Counted from the stretch's first letter, positions 3,396 to 39,895 are shown. The stretch is 43,726 nt of DNA from a virus (IMGVR_UViG_3300016665_000253:1-43726); one strand, 5' to 3'. The notes: generated by a model not told the origin, from the letters alone. Program-made: numbers and translations.

Positions 3396-3443
3396 GTTCG
3401 TCACCTTGTTCGTCGCGTCGCCCCGTGCGCCGCTGACCCCCTA

Positions 3444-3510
3444 TATCTACGCCCGGTGCTAGCACGGGTCAAGAATTATTTTCGCGGTGCGTGTCGATTT
3501 TTTTCTGCGG
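3444..3510 (-). promoter_or_regulatory. Early leftward promoter/operator module, copy 1
   Basis: Minus strand reads TTGACC (3472-3467), a 17-nt spacer, then TAGATA (3449-3444). GTGCTAGCAC (3456-3465) sits in the spacer. The AT-rich aagaattatttt and gtgtcgattttttt lie upstream. Confidence 0.55.
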
Positions 3511-5792: not shown

Positions 5793-6767
5793 ATGGTCTG
5801 GTTCAGAGTTGACGACGGGTTCCACGACCATCCGAAGGTCGAGGCGTTGCTTACGGGCAAGCACGCGAGCGACGCGATCGCGCTCTGGACGCTGGCTGGA
5901 TCGTGGTGCGGAAAGCACCTGACCGATGGTGAGATCAGCGCGTCCAAGGTCGCGCGGCTCGGCATCCGGCATCATGCGAAGGCCGCGCAGGAGCTGGTTC
6001 GCGTACGACTTTGGGAGGAAACCGAGACTGGTTTCCGCTTCCATCAGTGGACCGAACGACAGGCTGCGCGTGCAGACGTTGACCAAACGCGACGCGAATC
6101 AGCCGACAGAATGCGACGGTTGCGCGCTAATCAGCGGGCACGCCGCGAAGAGACGGGCCGCGAATCTATTGATGAATCTGGAAATGTTCGCGCGAACAGC
6201 ATCGAGCACGTTCGCACGAACGACGCGCGAAGTTCGCGAGTGCAAGTCTCCGAGCGTTCGTCAACCCATTCCATACCATTCCATTCCGTACCATACCAAA
6301 ACCAAAACCAAGACACCGCGCCTGCTCGCGAGACACTCGCGAGTGTGGGGCGAGACATTGACGAGACACTCGCGACACCCTCGCGCCTGACCTGTACCTC
6401 CGACCTCCGACCTGTACCAGCGATCACAACCCCGACGACGGTGGACGAGTCGCTCCGCTTCCCCGATCCAGATGCAGAAAATTTCAACGAGCGCGATCTT
6501 GAGCGTGCTGTCAGCGACGTGCGTGGTACGGAATGGAGAATCCCAACCGCTCCTCACCATCGTCGACAAGCACGCGAGACGGCTGCGCTGATCATGGCCT
6601 TCGCCCATAAAGGCGGATACGACCCGCACGCAATCGCGAGAGCGGCCTACGACGAGTGGCGGAAGGCGTCGAAGTCGATCGATCCGATGGTGTGGTGCGC
6701 GGACTGGGCTGTGAAACTGCCGCCACCACCGAAGAAGCAGGAGAAGTGGCGTGACCTCGAAGGCTGA
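5793..6767 (+). CDS. Replication initiator/replisome organiser (lambda O-like arrangement with internal origin)
   Basis: The N-terminus MVWFRVDDGFHDHPKV..ALWTLAGSWC resembles phage replication-protein N-domains. The gene precedes and overlaps dnaB, and a low-complexity linker coincides with DNA iterons. Confidence 0.6.
   Translation: MVWFRVDDGFHDHPKVEALLTGKHASDAIALWTLAGSWCGKHLTDGEISASKVARLGIRHHAKAAQELVRVRLWEETETGFRFHQWTERQAARADVDQTRRESADRMRRLRANQRARREETGRESIDESGNVRANSIEHVRTNDARSSRVQVSERSSTHSIPFHSVPYQNQNQDTAPARETLASVGRDIDETLATPSRLTCTSDLRPVPAITTPTTVDESLRFPDPDAENFNERDLERAVSDVRGTEWRIPTAPHHRRQARETAALIMAFAHKGGYDPHAIARAAYDEWRKASKSIDPMVWCADWAVKLPPPPKKQEKWRDLEG
6265..6420. repeat. Putative origin of replication: iterons, palindromes and an AT-rich stretch inside the initiator gene
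   Basis: ccattccataccattccattccgtaccatacc. aaaacc x2. GAGACACTCGCGA x2 (6331, 6364). 12-bp palindrome CACTCGCGAGTG (6335-6346). GACCTGTACC x2 (6390, 6410). Confidence 0.6.
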
Positions 6768-8070
6768 GCAGCTCTGCGACGTCAGCGCCGAGCGTGCGCT
6801 GCTCGCCGCGATGCTGGCCGATGCGCGCGTTGCAGACGCGTACGGCTGCCCCGCTGATGCCTGGACCGTGCCGCTACACGAGGCCGTCGCGAACGCCGTG
6901 CGCAGCCTGCTAGACGCGTCCCTGCGCGTCAGCGAAGCCACTGTCGTCTCGCACCTCCGACAGCGCCAGCAGCTCGACGCGCTCGGCGGTCCCGACGTCG
7001 TGTACGCGTTGTCCACTGGCGGCGCGCTGCTCGTCGACGTCGCGGTCGTCCACGCACGCGTGCTCGCGCTCGCAGGGCTGCGTCGCAAAGAGCGGCACCT
7101 GCTAGACGCGCTTGCGGCCGTGCGCACCGAGAACGTCGCGGGCGCTGCCGTTCACTGCGCAGCCGCGCTCGAGGACGACGCAGCGTCGAGCGTCGAATCG
7201 TTCTCGCTTGCGGAGGGCGTCGAGCGAGCCTACCTGCGCGCCACCAGCACCGACCAGATCGGACTGGTGCCGACAGGTATCCGCGCCGTCGACGAGGCTA
7301 TCGCGGGCCTCGGCCCCGGCGACCTCGCCATCGTCGGAGCAGACACCAACGTCGGCAAGTCGTCGCTGGCGCTGACGATGGGCGAGAAGCTCGGCGCGCA
7401 GAAGTTGCTGCTTGGATACATCAGCATCGAAGACCCGCGCCAGCTCATCGAGGACCGTCTGCTGTCGCGATTCTCGCGCGTCAGCGGGCACGCTATTCGC
7501 GCCAAGCAGCTGAGCTACGAAGACCACGAGCGCATCGCGCACGCCGTCGCCACAACGCGGCAAGCGGGACCGACTGCGGGATTCATCACGAGCTGCATCC
7601 CCGGCGCGACTGACTCCGACGTCGTGCGCGAGATGGCGCGGCTCGTGCGCGTCATGCACTGCGACGTCGTCTTCGTCGACTACGCGCAAGCCATCACGTG
7701 CTCGACTAAAACCGAGAACACGCGTCTCGAGGTGCGCACCATCGCGTCGCGCATCAAGGCCGCTGCGTCGCGACTCGGCATCCCGGTCTGGCTTGCATCG
7801 CAACTCACCGTTGAGCGCGGCGAGGGCAAGGAGCCCGGCAAGCACGACCTGCGCGACTCACGCGACCTCGCGCACCTCGCGGAGCTCGTCATCGTGCTGT
7901 GGCGCAAAGAGGAGCAGGACAGCGCCGTCGTGCACGGCCGCATCGTCAAAGGCAAGACGGGCGGCAATGGCGTCACGTTCCAGTTCAAGCGCGGCGCGGG
8001 CGGCAGTCTCAAAGAGGTCGACGCCGTCGAGGATTCAACGTTGTACACCGACCGGCGAGGCCGCCGATGA
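6751..8070 (+). CDS. dnaB: DnaB-family replicative DNA helicase
   Basis: N-terminal AERALLAAMLAD. Walker A GADTNVGKSSLAL. FVDYAQ. SQLTVER..HDLRDSRDLAHLAELVIVLWR matches the DnaB C-terminal motifs. Confidence 0.9.
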   Translation: MTSKAEQLCDVSAERALLAAMLADARVADAYGCPADAWTVPLHEAVANAVRSLLDASLRVSEATVVSHLRQRQQLDALGGPDVVYALSTGGALLVDVAVVHARVLALAGLRRKERHLLDALAAVRTENVAGAAVHCAAALEDDAASSVESFSLAEGVERAYLRATSTDQIGLVPTGIRAVDEAIAGLGPGDLAIVGADTNVGKSSLALTMGEKLGAQKLLLGYISIEDPRQLIEDRLLSRFSRVSGHAIRAKQLSYEDHERIAHAVATTRQAGPTAGFITSCIPGATDSDVVREMARLVRVMHCDVVFVDYAQAITCSTKTENTRLEVRTIASRIKAAASRLGIPVWLASQLTVERGEGKEPGKHDLRDSRDLAHLAELVIVLWRKEEQDSAVVHGRIVKGKTGGNGVTFQFKRGAGGSLKEVDAVEDSTLYTDRRGRR

Positions 8071-8435
8071 AACCGCACACCTGGAAGATCGACGGCGTGC
8101 TGGAATGGGGCGAGCCGCGTCGACGCTGCGCGAAGTGCGGGATGCTCGCTCACTGGATTGGCGCGCGCGAGGCGTGCCCGTGGATGATTTCGCAGCGTGC
8201 CGGCGACGAGCGCACGACGCTCGCAGCGGACATCACTTGCTGGCCGGGGCCGTACAAGCACAACGCATGGCGCACGTGCAAGCGCTGCTCGGCGCGATTC
8301 AGGCAGCCAAAGCGGTACAGGGCGCTCGCCTACTGCGGGCCAGTCTGCGTGCGCGAGCATGAGCGCGAGCGCAATCGCGATCACGTGGCGGCGCATTACG
8401 CACGCAAGCGCGAGGCAAGGTGCAATGACGCGTGA
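8067..8435 (+). CDS. Double zinc-finger protein, paralog 1 of 4 (122 aa)
   Basis: ATGA overlap with the dnaB stop. CAKCGMLAHW-x6-C, then WPGPY, then CKRC-x15-CGPVC and a basic tail. Confidence 0.7.
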   Translation: MKPHTWKIDGVLEWGEPRRRCAKCGMLAHWIGAREACPWMISQRAGDERTTLAADITCWPGPYKHNAWRTCKRCSARFRQPKRYRALAYCGPVCVREHERERNRDHVAAHYARKREARCNDA

Positions 8436-8814
8436 TGACATCGACGAGCGCGTTGCGTACCTGGCGCACGATTGGACGCACGACGGCGTGCGCGAGGTCG
8501 GCGGCGAACGCCATCGATGCGTGCGTTGCGGTGCGCTGCGCCACTGGCCTTTGAGCGCGGAGTCGTGTGCCACCATTCTCGAACAGCGCCCCGAAATCGA
8601 CCACGACACTCCACCGCTATTCGCCGACCAATGGCCCGGCCCGTTTGCGCGGCATCCAACGGTGACGTGCGCGATTTGCGCGCGAGCGTTTCGGCGACCA
8701 ATCGGATACGGCAACGCGTCGACGTGCAGCTCGTTGTGCAAACAGACCAAGGACCGGCGTCGCCGCGCAGAGCGGCAACGCATCAAGCGGGCTTTACAGC
8801 GAGTGCAGCGATGA
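8425..8814 (+). CDS. Double zinc-finger protein, paralog 2 of 4 (129 aa)
   Basis: ATG 8425 lies within the 3' end of paralog 1. YLAHDW..GVREVGG, CVRCGALRHW-x6-C, WPGPF, CAIC-x15-CSSLC, basic tail. Confidence 0.7.
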   Translation: MTRDDIDERVAYLAHDWTHDGVREVGGERHRCVRCGALRHWPLSAESCATILEQRPEIDHDTPPLFADQWPGPFARHPTVTCAICARAFRRPIGYGNASTCSSLCKQTKDRRRRAERQRIKRALQRVQR

Positions 8815-9194
8815 CCGACGACGACGAGCTCGAGGACGTCGGCGTGTATCTCGCGCACGACTGGGAGCTAGAAGGCGTGCGCGAGGTTGGCGGCAAGCTG
8901 CGTCGCTGTCGTCGCTGCGGCGTGCTCCAGCACTGGCCCGCTGCGGAGTCGTCGTGCTCGTCGGTGCTGTTGCACCAGCCAGCAGGCGATGTCGCGCAGG
9001 GGCCGCTACACGAAGGCCAGTGGACAGGACCGTATGCGGCGGGACCATTGCCGACGTGCGTTGTCTGCTCGCGCGCGTTTAGACGTCCAGTCATGAACAC
9101 ACTCGGCAAGACCTGCTCGTCGGCGTGCGCGGCCGAGAACAAACGCATCGCCAATCGTCGCGCGCGACTGGCAGCAAAGGCACGCAACGCATGA
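8811..9194 (+). CDS. Double zinc-finger protein, paralog 3 of 4 (127 aa)
   Basis: ATGA overlap. YLAHDW..GVREVGG, CRRCGVLQHW-x6-C, WTGPY, CVVC-x15-CSSAC, basic tail. Confidence 0.7.
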   Translation: MTDDDELEDVGVYLAHDWELEGVREVGGKLRRCRRCGVLQHWPAAESSCSSVLLHQPAGDVAQGPLHEGQWTGPYAAGPLPTCVVCSRAFRRPVMNTLGKTCSSACAAENKRIANRRARLAAKARNA

Positions 9195-9535
9195 GAAAGC
9201 ACGTCTTCTACGATGACGGCAAGACGCTTGACGGCGACCCGCTTCGTCGGTGCTATGGCTGCGGAGTCGCAGCGCATTGGCCTGCTGCGCAGGACGACTG
9301 CAACGCGGCATTTTTCAAGAGCGGCGTGCCTATCATGCCGCGCGACGGCACGACGAAGTGGCCTGGCCCATATCGCAAGGAAGCGCCGACGAAGTGCGGG
9401 CACTGTGGCGAGCTGTTTGTGCGCGCGAAATACCAGCACCGCGTGCGCTACTGCGGGCCCGTCTGTTCGGTGGCTGTTGCCAAGGTACGCCACAACGAAG
9501 GCCGCAAGCGCTGGCCGAGCGCGAGGCATCGATGA
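9191..9535 (+). CDS. Double zinc-finger protein, paralog 4 of 4 (114 aa)
   Basis: ATGA overlap. CYGCGVAAHW-x6-C, WPGPY, CGHC-x15-CGPVC, basic tail. Confidence 0.7.
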   Translation: MRKHVFYDDGKTLDGDPLRRCYGCGVAAHWPAAQDDCNAAFFKSGVPIMPRDGTTKWPGPYRKEAPTKCGHCGELFVRAKYQHRVRYCGPVCSVAVAKVRHNEGRKRWPSARHR

Positions 9536-9810
9536 CGCCGCGCTTGCACGCTGCTACGCTTGCGCGCGCCATGCGGCTCATCATCTTCGGAGGCTGTGGG
9601 ACGTGCCCGTTTGCGGCGACCGACATCATCGGTGAGTCGGCCGACGCGCTGCGCATCGAGCACGCCTGTCGCGTCAAGGACGACCGCATCATCACGGCAA
9701 GCGATGACCTCGCGACTGAGCCGCCTATGGTGCCGCCGCGCTGGTGCCCTATGCGGCTTGAGCAGATTGTGGTGCAGCTCGACATTGCACCGGATAGGAC
9801 TTCGAACTGA
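9532..9810 (+). CDS. Hypothetical Cys-containing protein (92 aa)
   Basis: ATGA overlap. MTPRLHAATL..GGCGTCPF..HAC..WCP. Confidence 0.5.
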   Translation: MTPRLHAATLARAMRLIIFGGCGTCPFAATDIIGESADALRIEHACRVKDDRIITASDDLATEPPMVPPRWCPMRLEQIVVQLDIAPDRTSN

Positions 9811-10067
9811 TGGCCGGTCAACTCCCAGCGCAGTGCAGGCGTCACCCCGGTTTCGTCGCGGGCAAGTGCGGCGCGTGCGAAATCGCGAAGAACCCCGCAG
9901 CGGCCACGGCTGAGAAGCGCATGAGCCCGACGCACGCCAAGCACTTCGGGCGCACGTCGCAGCAGTCGCGAGAAGCGCGCGAGCAGTACGAGGCAGACGC
10001 TCGAGCTCGACGCGAAGAGCATCTGCGGCAGGAGGCAATGTCCGCGATGCAGGGCAAGGCGCGATGA
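9810..10067 (+). CDS. Hypothetical protein (85 aa) with an N-terminal C-x10-CGAC and a charged helical tail
   Basis: TGATG-type overlap with the upstream stop. The ORF is in the track. Confidence 0.5.
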   Translation: MAGQLPAQCRRHPGFVAGKCGACEIAKNPAAATAEKRMSPTHAKHFGRTSQQSREAREQYEADARARREEHLRQEAMSAMQGKAR

Positions 10068-10147
10068 CTCTCGACGTCCGCTTCGTCGTGCCGGGCCCTG
10101 TCGTGCCGTGGCAGCGCGCGGCCAGCATAATTGACGAGGCGCAATAA
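10064..10147 (+). pseudogene. Truncated 5' remnant of rusA (27 codons) left by cassette insertion
   Basis: MTLDVRFVVPGPVVPWQRAAS (then IIDEAQ*) matches the first 21 aa of the intact RusA at 10886 (MNLDVCFTVPGPVVPWQRAAS), 18/21 aa. There is an ATGA overlap upstream. Confidence 0.7.
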
Positions 10148-10896
10148 TGAGTACTCTCGGCAATCGCGTCATTGTCGCAGACGCCTTGGAGTTTCTACGC
10201 GGTGAACCGTCCGAGTCCTACCATTTCATTTACGTCGATCCGCCGTATTTCAGCCAGCGGTTTTTCGGTGAGTTTGACGATCGGTGGGATTCGGTCGAAC
10301 AGTACATCGCGGCGCTCCAAGCGCAGTTTCGGGAAGCCCATCGGGTGCTGCGCAGCGACGGCAACCTGTGCGTCCATGTCGATTGGCACTGCGCGCATCG
10401 GGTTCGGCTGGCGCTTGAAGAGGTTTTCGGCGAGGACAACTTCCGAAACGAAATCGTCTGGTGCTATGCGTCGGGCGGCGCAAGCCCGCGCCATTTCTCG
10501 CGCAAGCACGACAACCTGTTTGTGTACGCAAAAGATTCAAAGCGGTGTAAGTTTCACACGCTTCGCGAGCCGTATCCGCGCGATTACGGCGGGCGGCCCG
10601 GATTTCACCCCGAAGGTCGGATGATGAACGATTGGTGGCAGATCGGCATTCTGTCTACGACCGCCAAAGAGCGCACCGGATATCCCACGCAAAAGCCTAT
10701 GCAATTGCTGCAAAGGCTTGTGCAGGCGTACACCGACGAAGGGGATCGCGTACTCGACTACAACTGCGGCAGCGGTACAACGGGCGTCGCAGCTATGTCG
10801 CTAGGCCGACGCTGCACGCTGGTAGACAGAAACCCGATAGCGATCGACATCGCACGCGAGCGGATGCAACGGCAGGGATGGTTACATGAATCTTGA
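10147..10896 (+). CDS. DNA methyltransferase, beta-class N6-adenine/N4-cytosine type (orphan, no cognate nuclease seen)
   Basis: Motif IV FIYVDPPYF lies near the N-terminus and the AdoMet motif DYNCGSGTTGVAA near the C-terminus. GC is visibly lower than in the flanks. Confidence 0.85.
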   Translation: MSTLGNRVIVADALEFLRGEPSESYHFIYVDPPYFSQRFFGEFDDRWDSVEQYIAALQAQFREAHRVLRSDGNLCVHVDWHCAHRVRLALEEVFGEDNFRNEIVWCYASGGASPRHFSRKHDNLFVYAKDSKRCKFHTLREPYPRDYGGRPGFHPEGRMMNDWWQIGILSTTAKERTGYPTQKPMQLLQRLVQAYTDEGDRVLDYNCGSGTTGVAAMSLGRRCTLVDRNPIAIDIARERMQRQGWLHES

Positions 10897-11308
10897 TGTC
10901 TGCTTCACCGTGCCCGGCCCTGTTGTGCCTTGGCAACGCGCCGCATCGGTGGGCACGCGCCGCTTCACGTCGACGAAGCAACGCAGCTACCAGCGCACCG
11001 TGCGCCTCGTGGCGATGGCATCGCGACCGCGTGGGCCGTGGTTGCCGTCGAAGGCATCGCGCTATCGCGTGGACATCGACGCGTATCTGCCCGACGAGCG
11101 CCGCCGCGACCTCGACAACATCGCAAAGACCATCCTCGACGCGCTCAACGGCGTGCTCTACCTCGACGACAGCCAAGTGGTGACGCTGCTCGTCGCGACG
11201 CATATCGACCGCGCAGAGCCTCGCGTCGTCGTCGCCGTGCGCGAGGTCGAGCGCGAGCAGGTAGCCCCGCCAAAGAGCCGCCAGCGCGCCGCAAAGGTGG
11301 TCGCGTGA
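10886..11308 (+). CDS. rusA: RusA-family Holliday junction resolvase
   Basis: RRDLDNIAKTILDALNGVLYLDDSQV matches the RusA catalytic Asp block. Length is 140 aa. Confidence 0.85.
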   Translation: MNLDVCFTVPGPVVPWQRAASVGTRRFTSTKQRSYQRTVRLVAMASRPRGPWLPSKASRYRVDIDAYLPDERRRDLDNIAKTILDALNGVLYLDDSQVVTLLVATHIDRAEPRVVVAVREVEREQVAPPKSRQRAAKVVA

Positions 11309-12333
11309 AGCGGCCTGCGCGCAGCCTGCTTAGCATCGACGTCCGACAGGTGCTTGCCGAGCACGTCGCGGAGGTCGAGCTCGTCGCGAGCCTTGAGGCC
11401 GCGCCCGTCATCGACCCGGCTATCGCACGCCTCGACGACCGCGCCATCGAGACGATCAGCGCCGAGCACTCGGCTCGTCGCGCGCGACTGGCAGACGAGG
11501 CGACACGCATGGCGCTGCTCATCCTCGCTCGCGAGTCAAAGGGCGAGTCACCACGCCCGCCGTTCCGTGGCGTGCTCGGCGCGTTGCGCGCTCTCGACGA
11601 GGTGCGCGTCGATGGTGCGCCCGTGCGCTCGTCGTCGTCGCCGTCGCGCTTTGAGCCAGAGCATCGCGGCGCAGGCGGCACGGCATCGGGCGATGTCGCG
11701 CAGCGTGCCGTCGAGCGCATCGCGCCGGTGTCGCGCCTGTGGGCGCAGTGCTTGGCGCAGGGTTGGACGCTGACCACGTTTCCCGCGCTAGCACGGCTGA
11801 CAGCCGAGCAGGCCCGCGAGGTCTGCATATGGGCGACGCTCGGCATACCAGGCGCGCGCGTCCCGCTACAGCACCCGCAGCCGATGCGCGGCGAGGGCGC
11901 ACGGCAGAAGCAGCCGCGCTACAAGCTCGCAGTCCGCGGCAAGCCACGCGTCGGCGAGGACGTCGACCCCTTCGATGACCCATCACCACGCGACGTCGCC
12001 GAGCACGCGAGCACGGTGTTCGGCGTCGAGGTGCCGGTGGGACACGTCGTCGCACTCCGACGCGAGGGCATCGGCGAGCTATATTCACGGCTGGCAGGGC
12101 GCGGGCTGATACCGCGAGATGGGAGGCTGGACGCTATGGCAGCGACACGAGCGACGCCGTGGGACGTCGAGGGATGGAAAGAGATTGCGAGCACGCTGGG
12201 ATGCTCGGAGCGCACTGCGCAGCGCGTGGCGTCGCGACCGGAGCGGCCTGCGCCGACCTATCGCACGTTTGTCGGCGTCGTGGCCGTGCGCGCAGAGTTG
12301 GCCGAATGGATGCGCGGCGAGATGAAGCGATGA
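11305..12333 (+). CDS. Hypothetical protein with a C-terminal HTH-like segment; positional candidate for a late-gene regulator
   Basis: GTG 11305 lies 4 nt after AAGGTGG and forms a GTGA overlap with the rusA stop. WKEIASTLGCSERTAQRVAS is HTH-like. The gene lies between rusA and the terminase genes, as Q does in lambdoid phages. Confidence 0.5.
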   Translation: MKRPARSLLSIDVRQVLAEHVAEVELVASLEAAPVIDPAIARLDDRAIETISAEHSARRARLADEATRMALLILARESKGESPRPPFRGVLGALRALDEVRVDGAPVRSSSSPSRFEPEHRGAGGTASGDVAQRAVERIAPVSRLWAQCLAQGWTLTTFPALARLTAEQAREVCIWATLGIPGARVPLQHPQPMRGEGARQKQPRYKLAVRGKPRVGEDVDPFDDPSPRDVAEHASTVFGVEVPVGHVVALRREGIGELYSRLAGRGLIPRDGRLDAMAATRATPWDVEGWKEIASTLGCSERTAQRVASRPERPAPTYRTFVGVVAVRAELAEWMRGEMKR

Positions 12334-37367: not shown

Positions 37368-38459
37368 ATGGCGACGTCGCTTGACCGTGCGCTCGTCGGC
37401 CTGCTCAACAGCATCGAGGTCTTTGGCCTCGGCGACAATACCGGCGTCACCGGCAGCGCCGCGATTACCCTCGACGCGCTCACGTCCTCGAGCGCGGGCA
37501 CCGTCGCAATCGACGGCGACGCGAGCATCACGCTCGGCGCGCTCACGTCGTCGTCGGCAGGCACGGTCGCGATCGATGGCGATGCTGCGGTCACGCTCGG
37601 CGCGGCGACGGTCGCGAGCGACGGCACTGTCGCGTCGCCAGGTACGAACGGCACGCTCGCAGTAACGCTCGGCGCGGCCACGCTGTCGAGCGCTGCGACG
37701 GTGCTGGTCGACGGCGACGCGGCCATCACGCTCGGCGCTGCGACCTCGACGAGCGCGGGCACGGTGCTCGTGTCGGGCGCGCTGTCGGCAACGCTCGGCG
37801 CTGCAACGCTGTCGAGCGCTGGCGGTGTCGTCGTCGACGGTGACCTCGCTGCGACACTCGGCACGCTGACGTCGAGCTCGGCCGCGACGGTCGCGATCGA
37901 TGGCGACCTCGCCACGACGCTCGGCACGCTGACGAGCAGCAGCGCGGGCGGCGTCGTCGTCGATGGCGATGCGTCGGTCACGCTCGGCACGTTGACGCTC
38001 GCGGCTGATGGTCTGGTACTCAGCGGCATCAACGGCAGCGCGTCGATCACGCTCGGCACGCTGACGCTCGCCAGCGCCTCCACAGTCGCCGTGCAGGGCG
38101 CAGCCGCCCTGACGCTCGGTGCAGCGACGTCGGCCGCAGCAGGCGGCGTCCTCATAGCCGGAACGGCCAGCGTTGCGCTTAATGCGGCGACGGTCGCGAG
38201 CGCGGGTCGCGTCGACCCTAACGGCACGGCCGCGATCACGCTCGGCGCGCTCACCGCAAGCGGCACGCTACAAGTCGAGACGCGCGGGCAGCTCGCCGTC
38301 ACGCTCGGCGTGCTCGAACTGTTCGCGACGAACGTCCCGTTTGTGCCTGCTGCTCGGCGCACGACTGAAACGCCGGGCCAGCCGCGCGCCATTGAGGCTA
38401 TCGCGCCACCGCGCGCAAACGACGTCCCGCGTCAGGCTCGCGTCGTCCGCGCAGCATAG
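37368..38459 (+). CDS. Repeat protein: 13-14 tandem 21-24-aa TLGxxT..G.V..DGD repeats (fibre-like)
   Basis: Repeats include ITLGALTSSSAGTVAIDGDAA and VTLGAATLSSAATVLVDGDAA. The non-repeat C-terminus is ..FVPAARRTTETPGQPR..RQARVVRAA. Confidence 0.65.
   Translation: MATSLDRALVGLLNSIEVFGLGDNTGVTGSAAITLDALTSSSAGTVAIDGDASITLGALTSSSAGTVAIDGDAAVTLGAATVASDGTVASPGTNGTLAVTLGAATLSSAATVLVDGDAAITLGAATSTSAGTVLVSGALSATLGAATLSSAGGVVVDGDLAATLGTLTSSSAATVAIDGDLATTLGTLTSSSAGGVVVDGDASVTLGTLTLAADGLVLSGINGSASITLGTLTLASASTVAVQGAAALTLGAATSAAAGGVLIAGTASVALNAATVASAGRVDPNGTAAITLGALTASGTLQVETRGQLAVTLGVLELFATNVPFVPAARRTTETPGQPRAIEAIAPPRANDVPRQARVVRAA
37464..38330 (+). repeat. Tandem ~63-bp coding repeats (diverged)
   Basis: The periodic ..acgctcggcgc.. 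unit recurs about every 63 nt and underlies the 21-aa protein repeat. Confidence 0.7.
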
Positions 38460-39385: not shown

Positions 39386-39895
39386 GTGGCCGATTACACC
39401 GGGTACATCGTCGCGATTCTCGGCGTTGTCGACGGTGACCAGACGCGCGTCGGTGCAGTGTGGCCTATCTCAGAGGTCATCTACGGCCGCCCGAATCGCG
39501 ACGTCGGCACAGCCACCATTACGCTCGGGGCGGCGACGGCAAGCGCGGCAGGCGCGGTCATCGTCGACGGCGATGCATCGATCGCGCTTGGCTCAGCTAC
39601 GCTTAGCAGCGCGGGCATCGTCGCATCAGCGGCTGTTACTGGGCAACTCACCGTCACGCTTGGTGCCGCAACGCTAAGCAGCTCAGGCACCGTCGCGTCG
39701 CCTGCAATCGCTGGTCAACTCGCCGTCACGCTCGGCGCTCTCAGCGTCGCCAGCGCAGGCACAGTCGCCGAGTTTGTGCCGTCGCGCGAGCGGACAAAGC
39801 GCGTGCCGTCGTGGCCGCGCGTGCTGCTCGCTGAGAATCCCGACCGCGTGATCGAACTCTACCGCCCACCGCGCACCGTGAGGACTGCCGCATGA
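39386..39895 (+). CDS. Short paralog of the TLG-repeat protein (4 repeats, 169 aa)
   Basis: GTG start. ITLGAATASAAGAVIVDGDAS, IALGSATLSSAG.., VTLGAATLSSSG.., VTLGALSVASAGTV. The C-terminus EFVPSRERTKRVPSWPR..RTVRTAA parallels that of 37368..38459. Confidence 0.6.
   Translation: MADYTGYIVAILGVVDGDQTRVGAVWPISEVIYGRPNRDVGTATITLGAATASAAGAVIVDGDASIALGSATLSSAGIVASAAVTGQLTVTLGAATLSSSGTVASPAIAGQLAVTLGALSVASAGTVAEFVPSRERTKRVPSWPRVLLAENPDRVIELYRPPRTVRTAA

Follow-up and report, generated by a model that had tools for sequence, protein, structure and literature searches.

Tandem paralogs of a predicted two-site zinc-finger protein in a phage genome, and the adjacency of their family to Holliday-junction resolvase genes

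The viral DNA IMGVR_UViG_3300016665_000253:1-43726 (43,726 nucleotides (nt), hereafter the window) has a G+C content of 66% and is a contig the size of a phage genome. Immediately downstream of its gene for a DnaB-type replicative helicase lie four consecutive, overlapping genes, all on the plus strand (8067-8435, 8425-8814, 8811-9194 and 9191-9535; copies 1 to 4, or c1 to c4), whose products are true paralogs, related well beyond chance. They belong to a previously undescribed, phage-restricted family of small proteins (~115-130 amino acids) with two predicted zinc sites, the genes of which, in distantly related contexts, directly abut a gene for a Holliday-junction resolvase, a feature absent from a preliminary description of this DNA. 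The most economical explanation, which we favour tentatively, would place them in the recombination module of the phage as small zinc proteins that bind DNA and act with, or control, the neighbouring resolvase.

The adjacency became apparent from inspection of the contigs of distant family members with a single full-length copy, where all informative cases but one place the zinc-finger gene next to a resolvase. In eight independent, distant contexts the one full-length gene abuts the resolvase gene, with either an overlap or a gap of no more than 9 nt, and the genes upstream of the zinc-finger gene and downstream of the resolvase vary among these eight loci. The abutting resolvase is drawn from either of two unrelated families (P-numbers here denote proteins, and L-numbers sequences or contigs, compared in the analysis). 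RusA is encoded downstream of P0056, P0079, P0043, P0051 and P0044; a 210-amino acid protein matching phrog_1770, 'Holliday junction resolvase' (E 7.7e-8), is encoded downstream of P0058; and homologs of the latter follow P0046 (187 amino acids, BLASTP 4e-9 to the neighbour of P0058) and P0073 (188 amino acids, 57% identity to the 187-amino acid protein beside P0046). In the phages with several copies, the array is always found between the replicative helicase, be it DnaB or a DEAD/SNF2 helicase, and rusA, the order being array, orf5, orf6, sometimes a methyltransferase, and then rusA. In the window the helicase gene occupies 6751-8070 (PF03796 E 7e-33, PF00772 E 7e-7), its stop codon overlapping the start of copy 1, and rusA, the conserved downstream partner of the zinc-finger genes, occupies 10886-11308 (PF05866 E 6e-18), both on the same strand as the array.

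The paralogy of the four genes is evident from their motifs. Each of the patterns H-x-[WF]-x14-C-x2-C-G-x3-H-W-x6-C, W-x-G-P-[YF] and C-x2-C-x15-C-x3-C, the last a ribbon ending in (Y/T)C(G/S)xxC, has one match per protein in all four copies by regular-expression search. Pairwise BLASTP among the copies gives E values from 3e-9 (c2/c4) to 5e-37 (c2/c3), and a hidden Markov model (HMM) of the family matches exactly four open reading frames (ORFs) in the window, namely copies 1 to 4. The single shared architecture proposed in the preliminary description is borne out, in that the Cys and His spacings are identical throughout, and its six ORFs (the four copies, orf5 and orf6) translate as it described; some of its finer points need amendment. 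The F-x-R that it placed within the ribbon of every copy is found in three, copy 1 having F-R-Q instead, and the basic C-terminal tail holds for c2 to c4 (net +7 to +10 over the last 30 residues) but not for c1, which reaches only +2. A fifth match to the ribbon pattern, at 1065-1136 on the plus strand, lies in a frame without a start codon, opposite or out of frame with the minus-strand gene 863-1399, and is a chance occurrence in G+C-rich sequence, so that the bare pattern alone is not diagnostic.

Copy 1 (type A, 122 amino acids) has its N-terminal zinc module at ~8076-8177, W-P-G-P-Y at 8241-8255 and the second finger, C-x2-C-x15-C-x3-C (hereafter finger 2), at 8277-8348, followed by a C-terminal helix. 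Copies 2 and 3 make up type B, which is marked by an acidic N-terminus and a YLAHDW motif. Copy 2 (129 amino acids) has the longer form YLAHDW..GVREVGG, finger 2 at 8668-8739 and a strongly basic tail, and copy 3 (type B', 127 amino acids), with 52% identity to copy 2, has finger 2 at 9057-9128. Type C is represented by copy 4 (114 amino acids, finger 2 at 9395-9466), the most conserved of the four. That these are tandem, overlapping genes following dnaB, as was originally noted, is confirmed by ATGA overlaps at the dnaB/c1, c2/c3, c3/c4 and c4/orf5 junctions, an overlap of 11 nt at c1/c2 and one of 1 nt (TGATG) at orf5/orf6. A GAGG/AGG-like purine stretch is found upstream of most starts in the array, and the G+C content at third codon positions (GC3) is 0.73-0.83 in the annotated frames, similar to that of dnaB, rusA and terL.

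The family is rare: an exhaustive HMMER search of 1.84 billion cluster representatives returned only 72 proteins at E <= 1e-3. About 30 of the 72 match over the whole length, and the remainder have finger 2 and its helix only, often as 2-28 tandem repeats in longer proteins; existing labels are 'hypothetical protein' and, in one case, 'ferredoxin'. Wider searches added little, a second word-indexed protein search with a wider alignment giving almost no new members, a second IMG/VR scan with distant members giving one new contig only, and a degenerate DNA-pattern scan of metagenome contigs giving 120 loci, among them one true member on an already known contig. No member was seen in a cultured phage, blastn of 6000-12000 and tblastn of three members giving no significant match in 50,697 phage records; a weak match in Gordonia GTE5 (E 4) pointed to unannotated ORFs only. 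Two GTDB scans of species-representative genomes, with type C and type B alignments, found no relative. Amongst the libraries, Pfam gave only sub-threshold generic zinc-ribbon and treble-clef matches (for the four copies at E <= 10 and for 38 members at E <= 1), NCBIfam and PADLOC had no match for the family, a sequence search of the PDB yielded nothing below E 0.25, and Foldseek with models of copies 1 and 4 yielded nothing in the PDB below E 1. The proteins are, in other words, as uncharacterised as was first supposed. Small zinc-ribbon proteins beside phage nucleases, and fingers of the FCS/NinG type, are kinds already known; what is new is the N-terminal module and the two-module architecture, in a family absent from curated libraries.

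Residues H4, C21, C24, W30, C37, C71, C74, C90 and C94 (numbered as in copy 1) are invariant in 38-40 diverse members, H4 being a His that the preliminary description did not mention. H29, which the preliminary description took as the His of a CCHC knuckle, is D, A or T in five members. Given that H4 is invariant and H29 replaceable, the ligands of the first site may be H4/C21/C24/C37 instead of a set that contains H29; the spacing of the knuckle is identical in the four copies. AlphaFold2 models of copy 1 (pLDDT 71) and copy 4 (pLDDT 79) both predict that the first knuckle is preceded by a beta-hairpin and followed by a short helix and a linker with little order; they also predict short strands about the second site and a confident helix of 18-30 residues which begins at the second Cys pair and spans 92-121 in copy 1. 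The N-terminal module, unique to the family, thus comprises a beta-hairpin, a C-x2-C knuckle, a later Cys and the invariant His and Trp; a linker, predicted to be disordered and ending in W-x-G-P-Y, would join it to finger 2, and the C-x2-C-x15-C-x3-C of finger 2 appears in the models to run into a long basic helix. The proteins carry a net charge of +3 to +13.

The two modules are separable, as is evident from the existence of small proteins that consist of the N-terminal module only. In phages with a single full-length copy, a gene of this kind is found just upstream of it (L022 5672-6004; L029 4606-5004; L039 1798-1989), and the H-W pair is replaced in its product, for example in C-x2-C-H-C-H-S-R-M-P. 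Such stand-alone genes suggest that the N-terminal module works as an independent unit. Conversely, one N-terminal module is combined with two second fingers in P0037, P0038 and the L011-type copy 4, the C-terminus of copy 4 being fused to an extra finger 2 and helix in L011 (5607-6165) and in the L007-L017 group.

It is finger 2 that connects the family to proteins of known type. The family profile matches P0035, which has 28 repeats, at E 5e-27, and P0035 in turn matches positions 7-56 of Pfam NinG, barely over the gathering score; the repeat proteins P0035, P0047 and P0059 match NinG within positions 5-56, and weak matches to NinG, zf-FCS and DUF2116, the last labelled a 'probable treble clef', are seen in others. 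Directly, Pfam NinG is matched by 4 of 38 members (best E 0.011), and alignment of the family with lambda NinG by hhalign brings the four Cys into register in what is a weak match (E 1.2e-3, probability 20%). Copy 1 also matches the VATC treble clef in Pfam at E 0.011. All four copies have the treble-clef motif of the FCS/TRASH/DUF2116 kind (PF06467, PF09889), that is, C-x2-C together with (Y/T)C(G/S)xxC at a helix start, the latter located from the AlphaFold2 models. No zf-FCS or DUF2116 match exceeds the Pfam gathering score, the repeat relatives reaching 19.1 against 22.4 and 15-20 against 26.8 bits. Other relatives fuse finger 2 to WhiB, sigma-70 region 4 or Ros/MucR domains, and P0097 consists of three such fingers and then an HNH domain. 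Taken together, these relationships put finger 2 in a loosely defined group of treble-clef fingers, of the FCS/NinG type, whose members are companions of nucleases and DNA-binding domains; they do not establish that it belongs to any named family.

Among known systems, the N-terminal zinc finger of lambda Rap/NinG (PF05766, first ~50 residues) is one of the closest. Like the family proteins, Rap/NinG appears to have a finger, C-x(2-4)-C ... [WYF]-C-[SG]-x-x-C, that leads straight into a long helix rich in Arg and Lys, it is encoded in a post-replication ('nin-like') phage region, and it is associated with a junction-cutting nuclease; the Cys ligands are in register and the repeat proteins bridge both. 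Rap, however, holds finger and HNH nuclease in one chain, whereas the family protein ends after the helix and the RusA or phrog_1770 nuclease is a separate gene. Rap also has no counterpart of the N-terminal module or of W-x-G-P-Y, and the similarity is weak, at the hhalign probability given above. An extra N-terminal zinc finger has been predicted in Rap/NinG by Jablonska et al. (PMC5714182). For free-standing proteins there is a precedent in the zinc-ribbon proteins (ZRPs) which Xu and Gupta described in 2013 next to phage HNH endonucleases, and which were proposed, without testing, to be regulators or 'mini-specificity subunits' (PMC3592412). ZRPs resemble the family in being small, in having one or two Cys/His sites and in being encoded immediately beside a phage nuclease, to which they are sometimes fused; the family has the same kind of adjacency in its eight distant contexts, whereas in the window orf5, orf6 and a methyltransferase intervene. 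ZRPs occur with HNH nickases by cos/terminase in Firmicutes phages and the family with Holliday-junction resolvases in a replication/recombination module. No tandem arrays of ZRPs have been reported, and the family is set beside them by description, not by sequence. On the explanation favoured here, the family would be the free-standing counterpart of a finger which Rap/NinG and some HNH enzymes carry in cis.

Regarding the age of the array, a survey of copy number in related phages, which the preliminary description had proposed, finds it in more than 20 related contigs (family HMM over 21), with 4-5 copies and with the order A, B, B', C kept. Four copies are present in the close relatives of the window and in a lineage where a DEAD-box helicase replaces DnaB; another lineage has four copies and an extra second finger, and lineage-specific extra duplications of B or C are also seen. 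In a neighbour-joining tree the copies group by position, not by phage, from which it follows that the array is ancient. A recent tandem amplification was rejected on these grounds, and the four-fold amplification of the preliminary description, if taken as a recent event, does not survive the finding that the order is kept across diverged phages.

The outer and the inner copies differ in their divergence. Between the window and the near-identical phage L001, the ratio of non-synonymous to synonymous substitution rates (dN/dS) is 0.07-0.17 for all four genes, low values which indicate that the genes are functional. Against L005, the DnaB of which is 96% identical, copies 1 and 4 keep 93-95% identity and have a dN/dS of 0.07-0.09, whereas copies 2 and 3 have only 53-59% amino acid identity, a dN/dS of ~0.5 and raised synonymous divergence (dS). 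Copy 2 has 53% amino acid identity to its L005 counterpart, with flanks at 93-96%, and the position-3 copy of L005 is of a different B subtype. The same pattern is seen in the 100-nt identity profile, which is at 54-72% over 8400-9190, except for an 83% bin at the start of c3, and at 83-96% in the neighbours (most of DnaB, c1, c4, orf5 and orf6). Copy 4 is 94-96% identical in L001, L005, L018, L019 and L021, with dN/dS of 0.07-0.08. Copies 1 and 4, therefore, are under strong purifying selection, and copies 2 and 3 form a hypervariable, mosaic, exchangeable cassette, the raised synonymous divergence of which points to allele swapping rather than to proven positive selection. Diversifying selection or a hetero-oligomeric assembly, both of which had been suggested at the outset, accordingly find partial support, in the hypervariability of copies 2 and 3 but not in the dN/dS of copies 1 and 4.

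The proposal that the family belongs to the recombination module is drawn from the resolvase synteny, the position between helicase and rusA, the links of finger 2 to nucleases and DNA-binding domains, the HNH endonuclease matches in phrog_1271 and BFVD (detailed below), the charge and the helix, the low dN/dS and the precedent of the ZRPs; zinc binding, DNA binding and a link to resolvase activity are what we infer from these. The proteins would bind DNA, probably branched or otherwise structured, and would act together with the downstream Holliday-junction resolvase, perhaps by regulating this nuclease or by providing, in trans, a subunit for its targeting or specificity. The ancestral state, if its polarity is read correctly, was probably one full-length gene, sometimes preceded by a gene for the N-terminal module only, directly before a resolvase. 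Ancient duplications in the lineage of the window would then have led to the ordered array A-B-B'-C, in which A and C are held by strong purifying selection and the two B copies are exchanged, or diversify fast, between otherwise similar phages.

Our confidence in this proposal is modest, owing to the weakness of the homology links, the possibility of a conserved resolvase slot and the ability of RusA to work alone in vitro, and several specific points weigh against it. The links to known domains are all below the usual thresholds (hhalign 20%, PHROG ~4e-6 over a partial profile, Foldseek E > 0.05). The synteny may reflect a conserved resolvase 'slot' which ends the replication module and is inherited by related phages; in the lineage of the window, moreover, two further small genes come between the array and rusA, joined in the window by a methyltransferase gene. 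E. coli RusA needs no accessory protein to resolve junctions in vitro. A resolvase link alone also leaves the 4-5 copies and the hypervariable pair unexplained. Finally, the exceptional case among the distant loci is P0045 (L033 5001-5926; also L034, L160 and L161), which precedes a Mom-like gene, not a resolvase, and overlaps the start of this Mom-family DNA-modification gene (PF25680 31.3 bits, phrog_1384 E 1e-16); on the P0045 contig another member of the family precedes RusA.

A more elaborate form of the recombination-module proposal, which we regard as doubtful, would see in the family a new class of subunits that act in trans to direct phage Holliday-junction resolvases to their DNA targets. 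The novel N-terminal module would attach to the resolvase or to one arm of a junction, DNA would be bound by the Rap-like finger and helix, and resolvases of either of two unrelated folds, RusA and phrog_1770, could be the partner. The lineage of the window would have expanded this into an ordered, hetero-oligomeric A-B-B'-C set, possibly together with orf5 and orf6, in which exchange of the B pair would alter the choice of DNA structures or sequences for cleavage. Since resolvases of the RusA type are held to be self-sufficient, a dedicated, widely co-inherited zinc-finger partner, if true, would change models of phage recombination and genome maturation; it would equally offer a small natural modular domain for binding DNA structures, exploitable in principle like the zinc-ribbon/HNH engineered nickases. 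Aside from function, the array illustrates on a small scale how genes duplicated long ago can fare in a phage genome of modest size, two paralogs being frozen and two cassette-swapped, and an unannotated family can now be recognised by a set of diagnostic motifs and by its new N-terminal zinc module.

An alternative that we hold to be unlikely is that the proteins regulate gene expression, either as DNA-binding factors in a late-gene (packaging/head) switch or as RNA-binding translational activators like Com of phage Mu, which activates mom. In the latter form they would switch on the overlapping downstream gene, a resolvase or Mom, whose product would be harmful if made early. Such a role would suit the fusion of finger 2 to the transcription-factor domains of WhiB, sigma-70 region 4 and Ros/MucR, the position of the genes, which close the early operon shortly ahead of terS/terL, and the overlap, in most loci, of the stop codon of the zinc-finger gene with the start of its downstream neighbour. 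Xu and Gupta, moreover, list 'transcription regulator of the adjacent nuclease gene' among the options for ZRPs (PMC3592412). Com, like the family, is a small phage zinc protein whose gene overlaps the start of the next, and the place of P0045 before a Mom-family gene mimics the com-mom layout of Mu, but most members precede a resolvase instead. The Com profile (PF10122) is matched by 1 of 38 members at E 0.14, the family proteins are about twice as long as Com and have two modules, and no known regulator family is matched. The late-gene activators P2 Ogr and P4 Delta are likewise small phage Cys4 zinc proteins, found at a different genomic position; Delta is a tandem duplication of the Ogr unit and, as such, a precedent for duplicated zinc modules in phages. 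The Cys spacing of Com and of Ogr, the latter being C-x2-C-x22-C-x4-C, differs from that of the family, and Pfam and PHROG scans revealed no Ogr/Delta homology. Operator-like repeats were looked for near the array and none was found, and 4-5 paralogs in a row are hard to square with control of a single downstream gene.

Somewhat less probable again is that these are effectors of host takeover or anti-defence, each paralog binding a different host protein (gyrase in a YacG-like manner, RNA polymerase or a defence component) and the variable copies tracking host diversity. Copies 2 and 3 are indeed hypervariable between otherwise near-identical phages, and the region is an insertion hot-spot for DNA methyltransferases, which are anti-restriction morons. 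YacG, a DNA gyrase inhibitor (PF03884; PDB 4TMA, 1LV3), is also of small size and has the same C-x2-C-x15-C-x3-C spacing, a likeness already recorded in the preliminary description and exact in all four copies. In the Foldseek search with the copy 4 model, YacG chains rank 2nd, 5th and 6th in the PDB, although these matches are non-significant (E 1.3-1.6, probability 0.44-0.63; 4tma_K at E 1.3, probability 0.63 and TM 0.54 on the target over 39 columns; also 4tma_I/J and 1lv3). Membership of the YacG family, or a YacG role, is not supported, since hhalign with E. coli YacG, in which the ligands align, gives a probability of only 8.8%, there is no Pfam YacG match and the tails differ. The one finger of YacG is accompanied by a tail which contains Trp, is acidic (as in sequence L027) and engages GyrB, whereas the family has two metal modules and, past the finger, a basic helix; the YacG locus is a bacterial housekeeping one, in contrast to the phage recombination context of the family. 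Nothing that supports the targeting of host factors or defence components was found, PADLOC being without a match. Copies 1 and 4 are highly conserved core genes in an array of ancient order, which is atypical of accessory anti-defence genes, and the variable copies have a dN/dS of only ~0.5, where positive selection would exceed 1, together with a raised dS that points to allele exchange and not to positive selection in situ.

Of 38 members, 20 match the phrog_1271 profile, 'HNH endonuclease', across both fingers at E < 0.01 (best 3.7e-6), although only positions ~174-261 of the 361 profile columns are covered, and the top Foldseek match in BFVD is an actinophage HNH endonuclease (probability 0.82, E 0.054). 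These matches, with the fused HNH domain of P0097, might be taken to mean that the genes are DNA-binding remnants of phrog_1271-type HNH homing endonucleases that have lost the nuclease domain and persist as selfish or neutral leftovers, but this is very improbable, for strong purifying selection, together with an order and a position that are kept even among deeply diverged phages, suggests that a function has been retained, and no trace of an HNH motif or pseudogenised nuclease sequence lies beside the copies. A degenerate HNH domain within the proteins was rejected for want of an HNH signal, there being no Pfam HNH match in the four copies or 38 members and no H-N-H pattern in the alignments; the proteins stop 20-30 residues past finger 2. 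The related phage Caron has no phrog_1271 or 'Honk' HNH endonuclease gene. A role as helicase loader or primase was also rejected, since the array persists where a DEAD/SNF2 helicase replaces DnaB.

Turning to the genes that follow the array, orf5 (9532-9810, plus strand, 92 amino acids) has a conserved C-x2-C-x20-C-x25-C; in L002 and L011 the homologous protein begins at the residue that corresponds to Met14, such that the true start may be at 9571, giving 79 amino acids. The product of orf6 (9810-10067, plus strand, 85 amino acids) has a conserved N-terminal C-x2-H-x7-C-x2-C and then a charged helical tail. Both are conserved in all multi-copy lineages with fixed metal-ligand patterns, both are without a match in any library, and their dN/dS values are 0.11-0.30 and 0.05-0.15, respectively. 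The preliminary description saw in them a continuation of the chain, and they are indeed overlapping, Cys-bearing and conserved, but they are not homologous to the four paralogs, BLASTP giving no match to copies 1 to 4 and the family HMM finding those copies only. With them, six consecutive putative zinc proteins are encoded between dnaB and rusA.

Between orf6 and rusA the window has an N6/N4 DNA methyltransferase gene (10147-10896, plus strand; PF01555 E 8e-42), an insertion particular to this phage that L005, L018 and L019 lack and whose GC3 is lower, at 0.68. A C5 methylase gene lies between copy 1 and copy 2 in L008 (6378-7637) and L010 (5389-7014), and L011 has one for a 489-amino acid methylase (6643-8112) between orf6 and rusA. 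The array region is, in other words, a hot-spot for methylase morons.

Upstream of dnaB, 5793-6767 encodes a replication initiator of 324 amino acids (phrog_2447 E 7e-32), with a weak match to a DnaD-like helicase loader and none in Pfam. Downstream of rusA, 11308-12330 encodes a protein of ~330 amino acids with no family and a weak HTH_23 match, which is always found between the resolvase and the small terminase subunit; its equivalents are L002 6203-7201 and proteins of ~327-333 amino acids in L022, L024, L033 and L037. The small and large terminase subunits are encoded from 12440, and Mu-like portal, protease and capsid genes are present in close relatives of the phage. Elsewhere in the window, two 75-nt direct repeats, 76% identical (1771-1845 and 3427-3501), contain the palindrome GTGCTAGCAC and an AT-rich stretch; they sit in the gaps where leftward blocks of genes meet rightward ones, possibly as a pair of regulatory or operator regions. 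Degenerate tandem repeats of 63 nt (21 codons) are found at 37443-38150 and 39560-39770, inside the ORFs 37368-38459 and 39386-39895, which presumably encode tail-fibre-like repetitive proteins.

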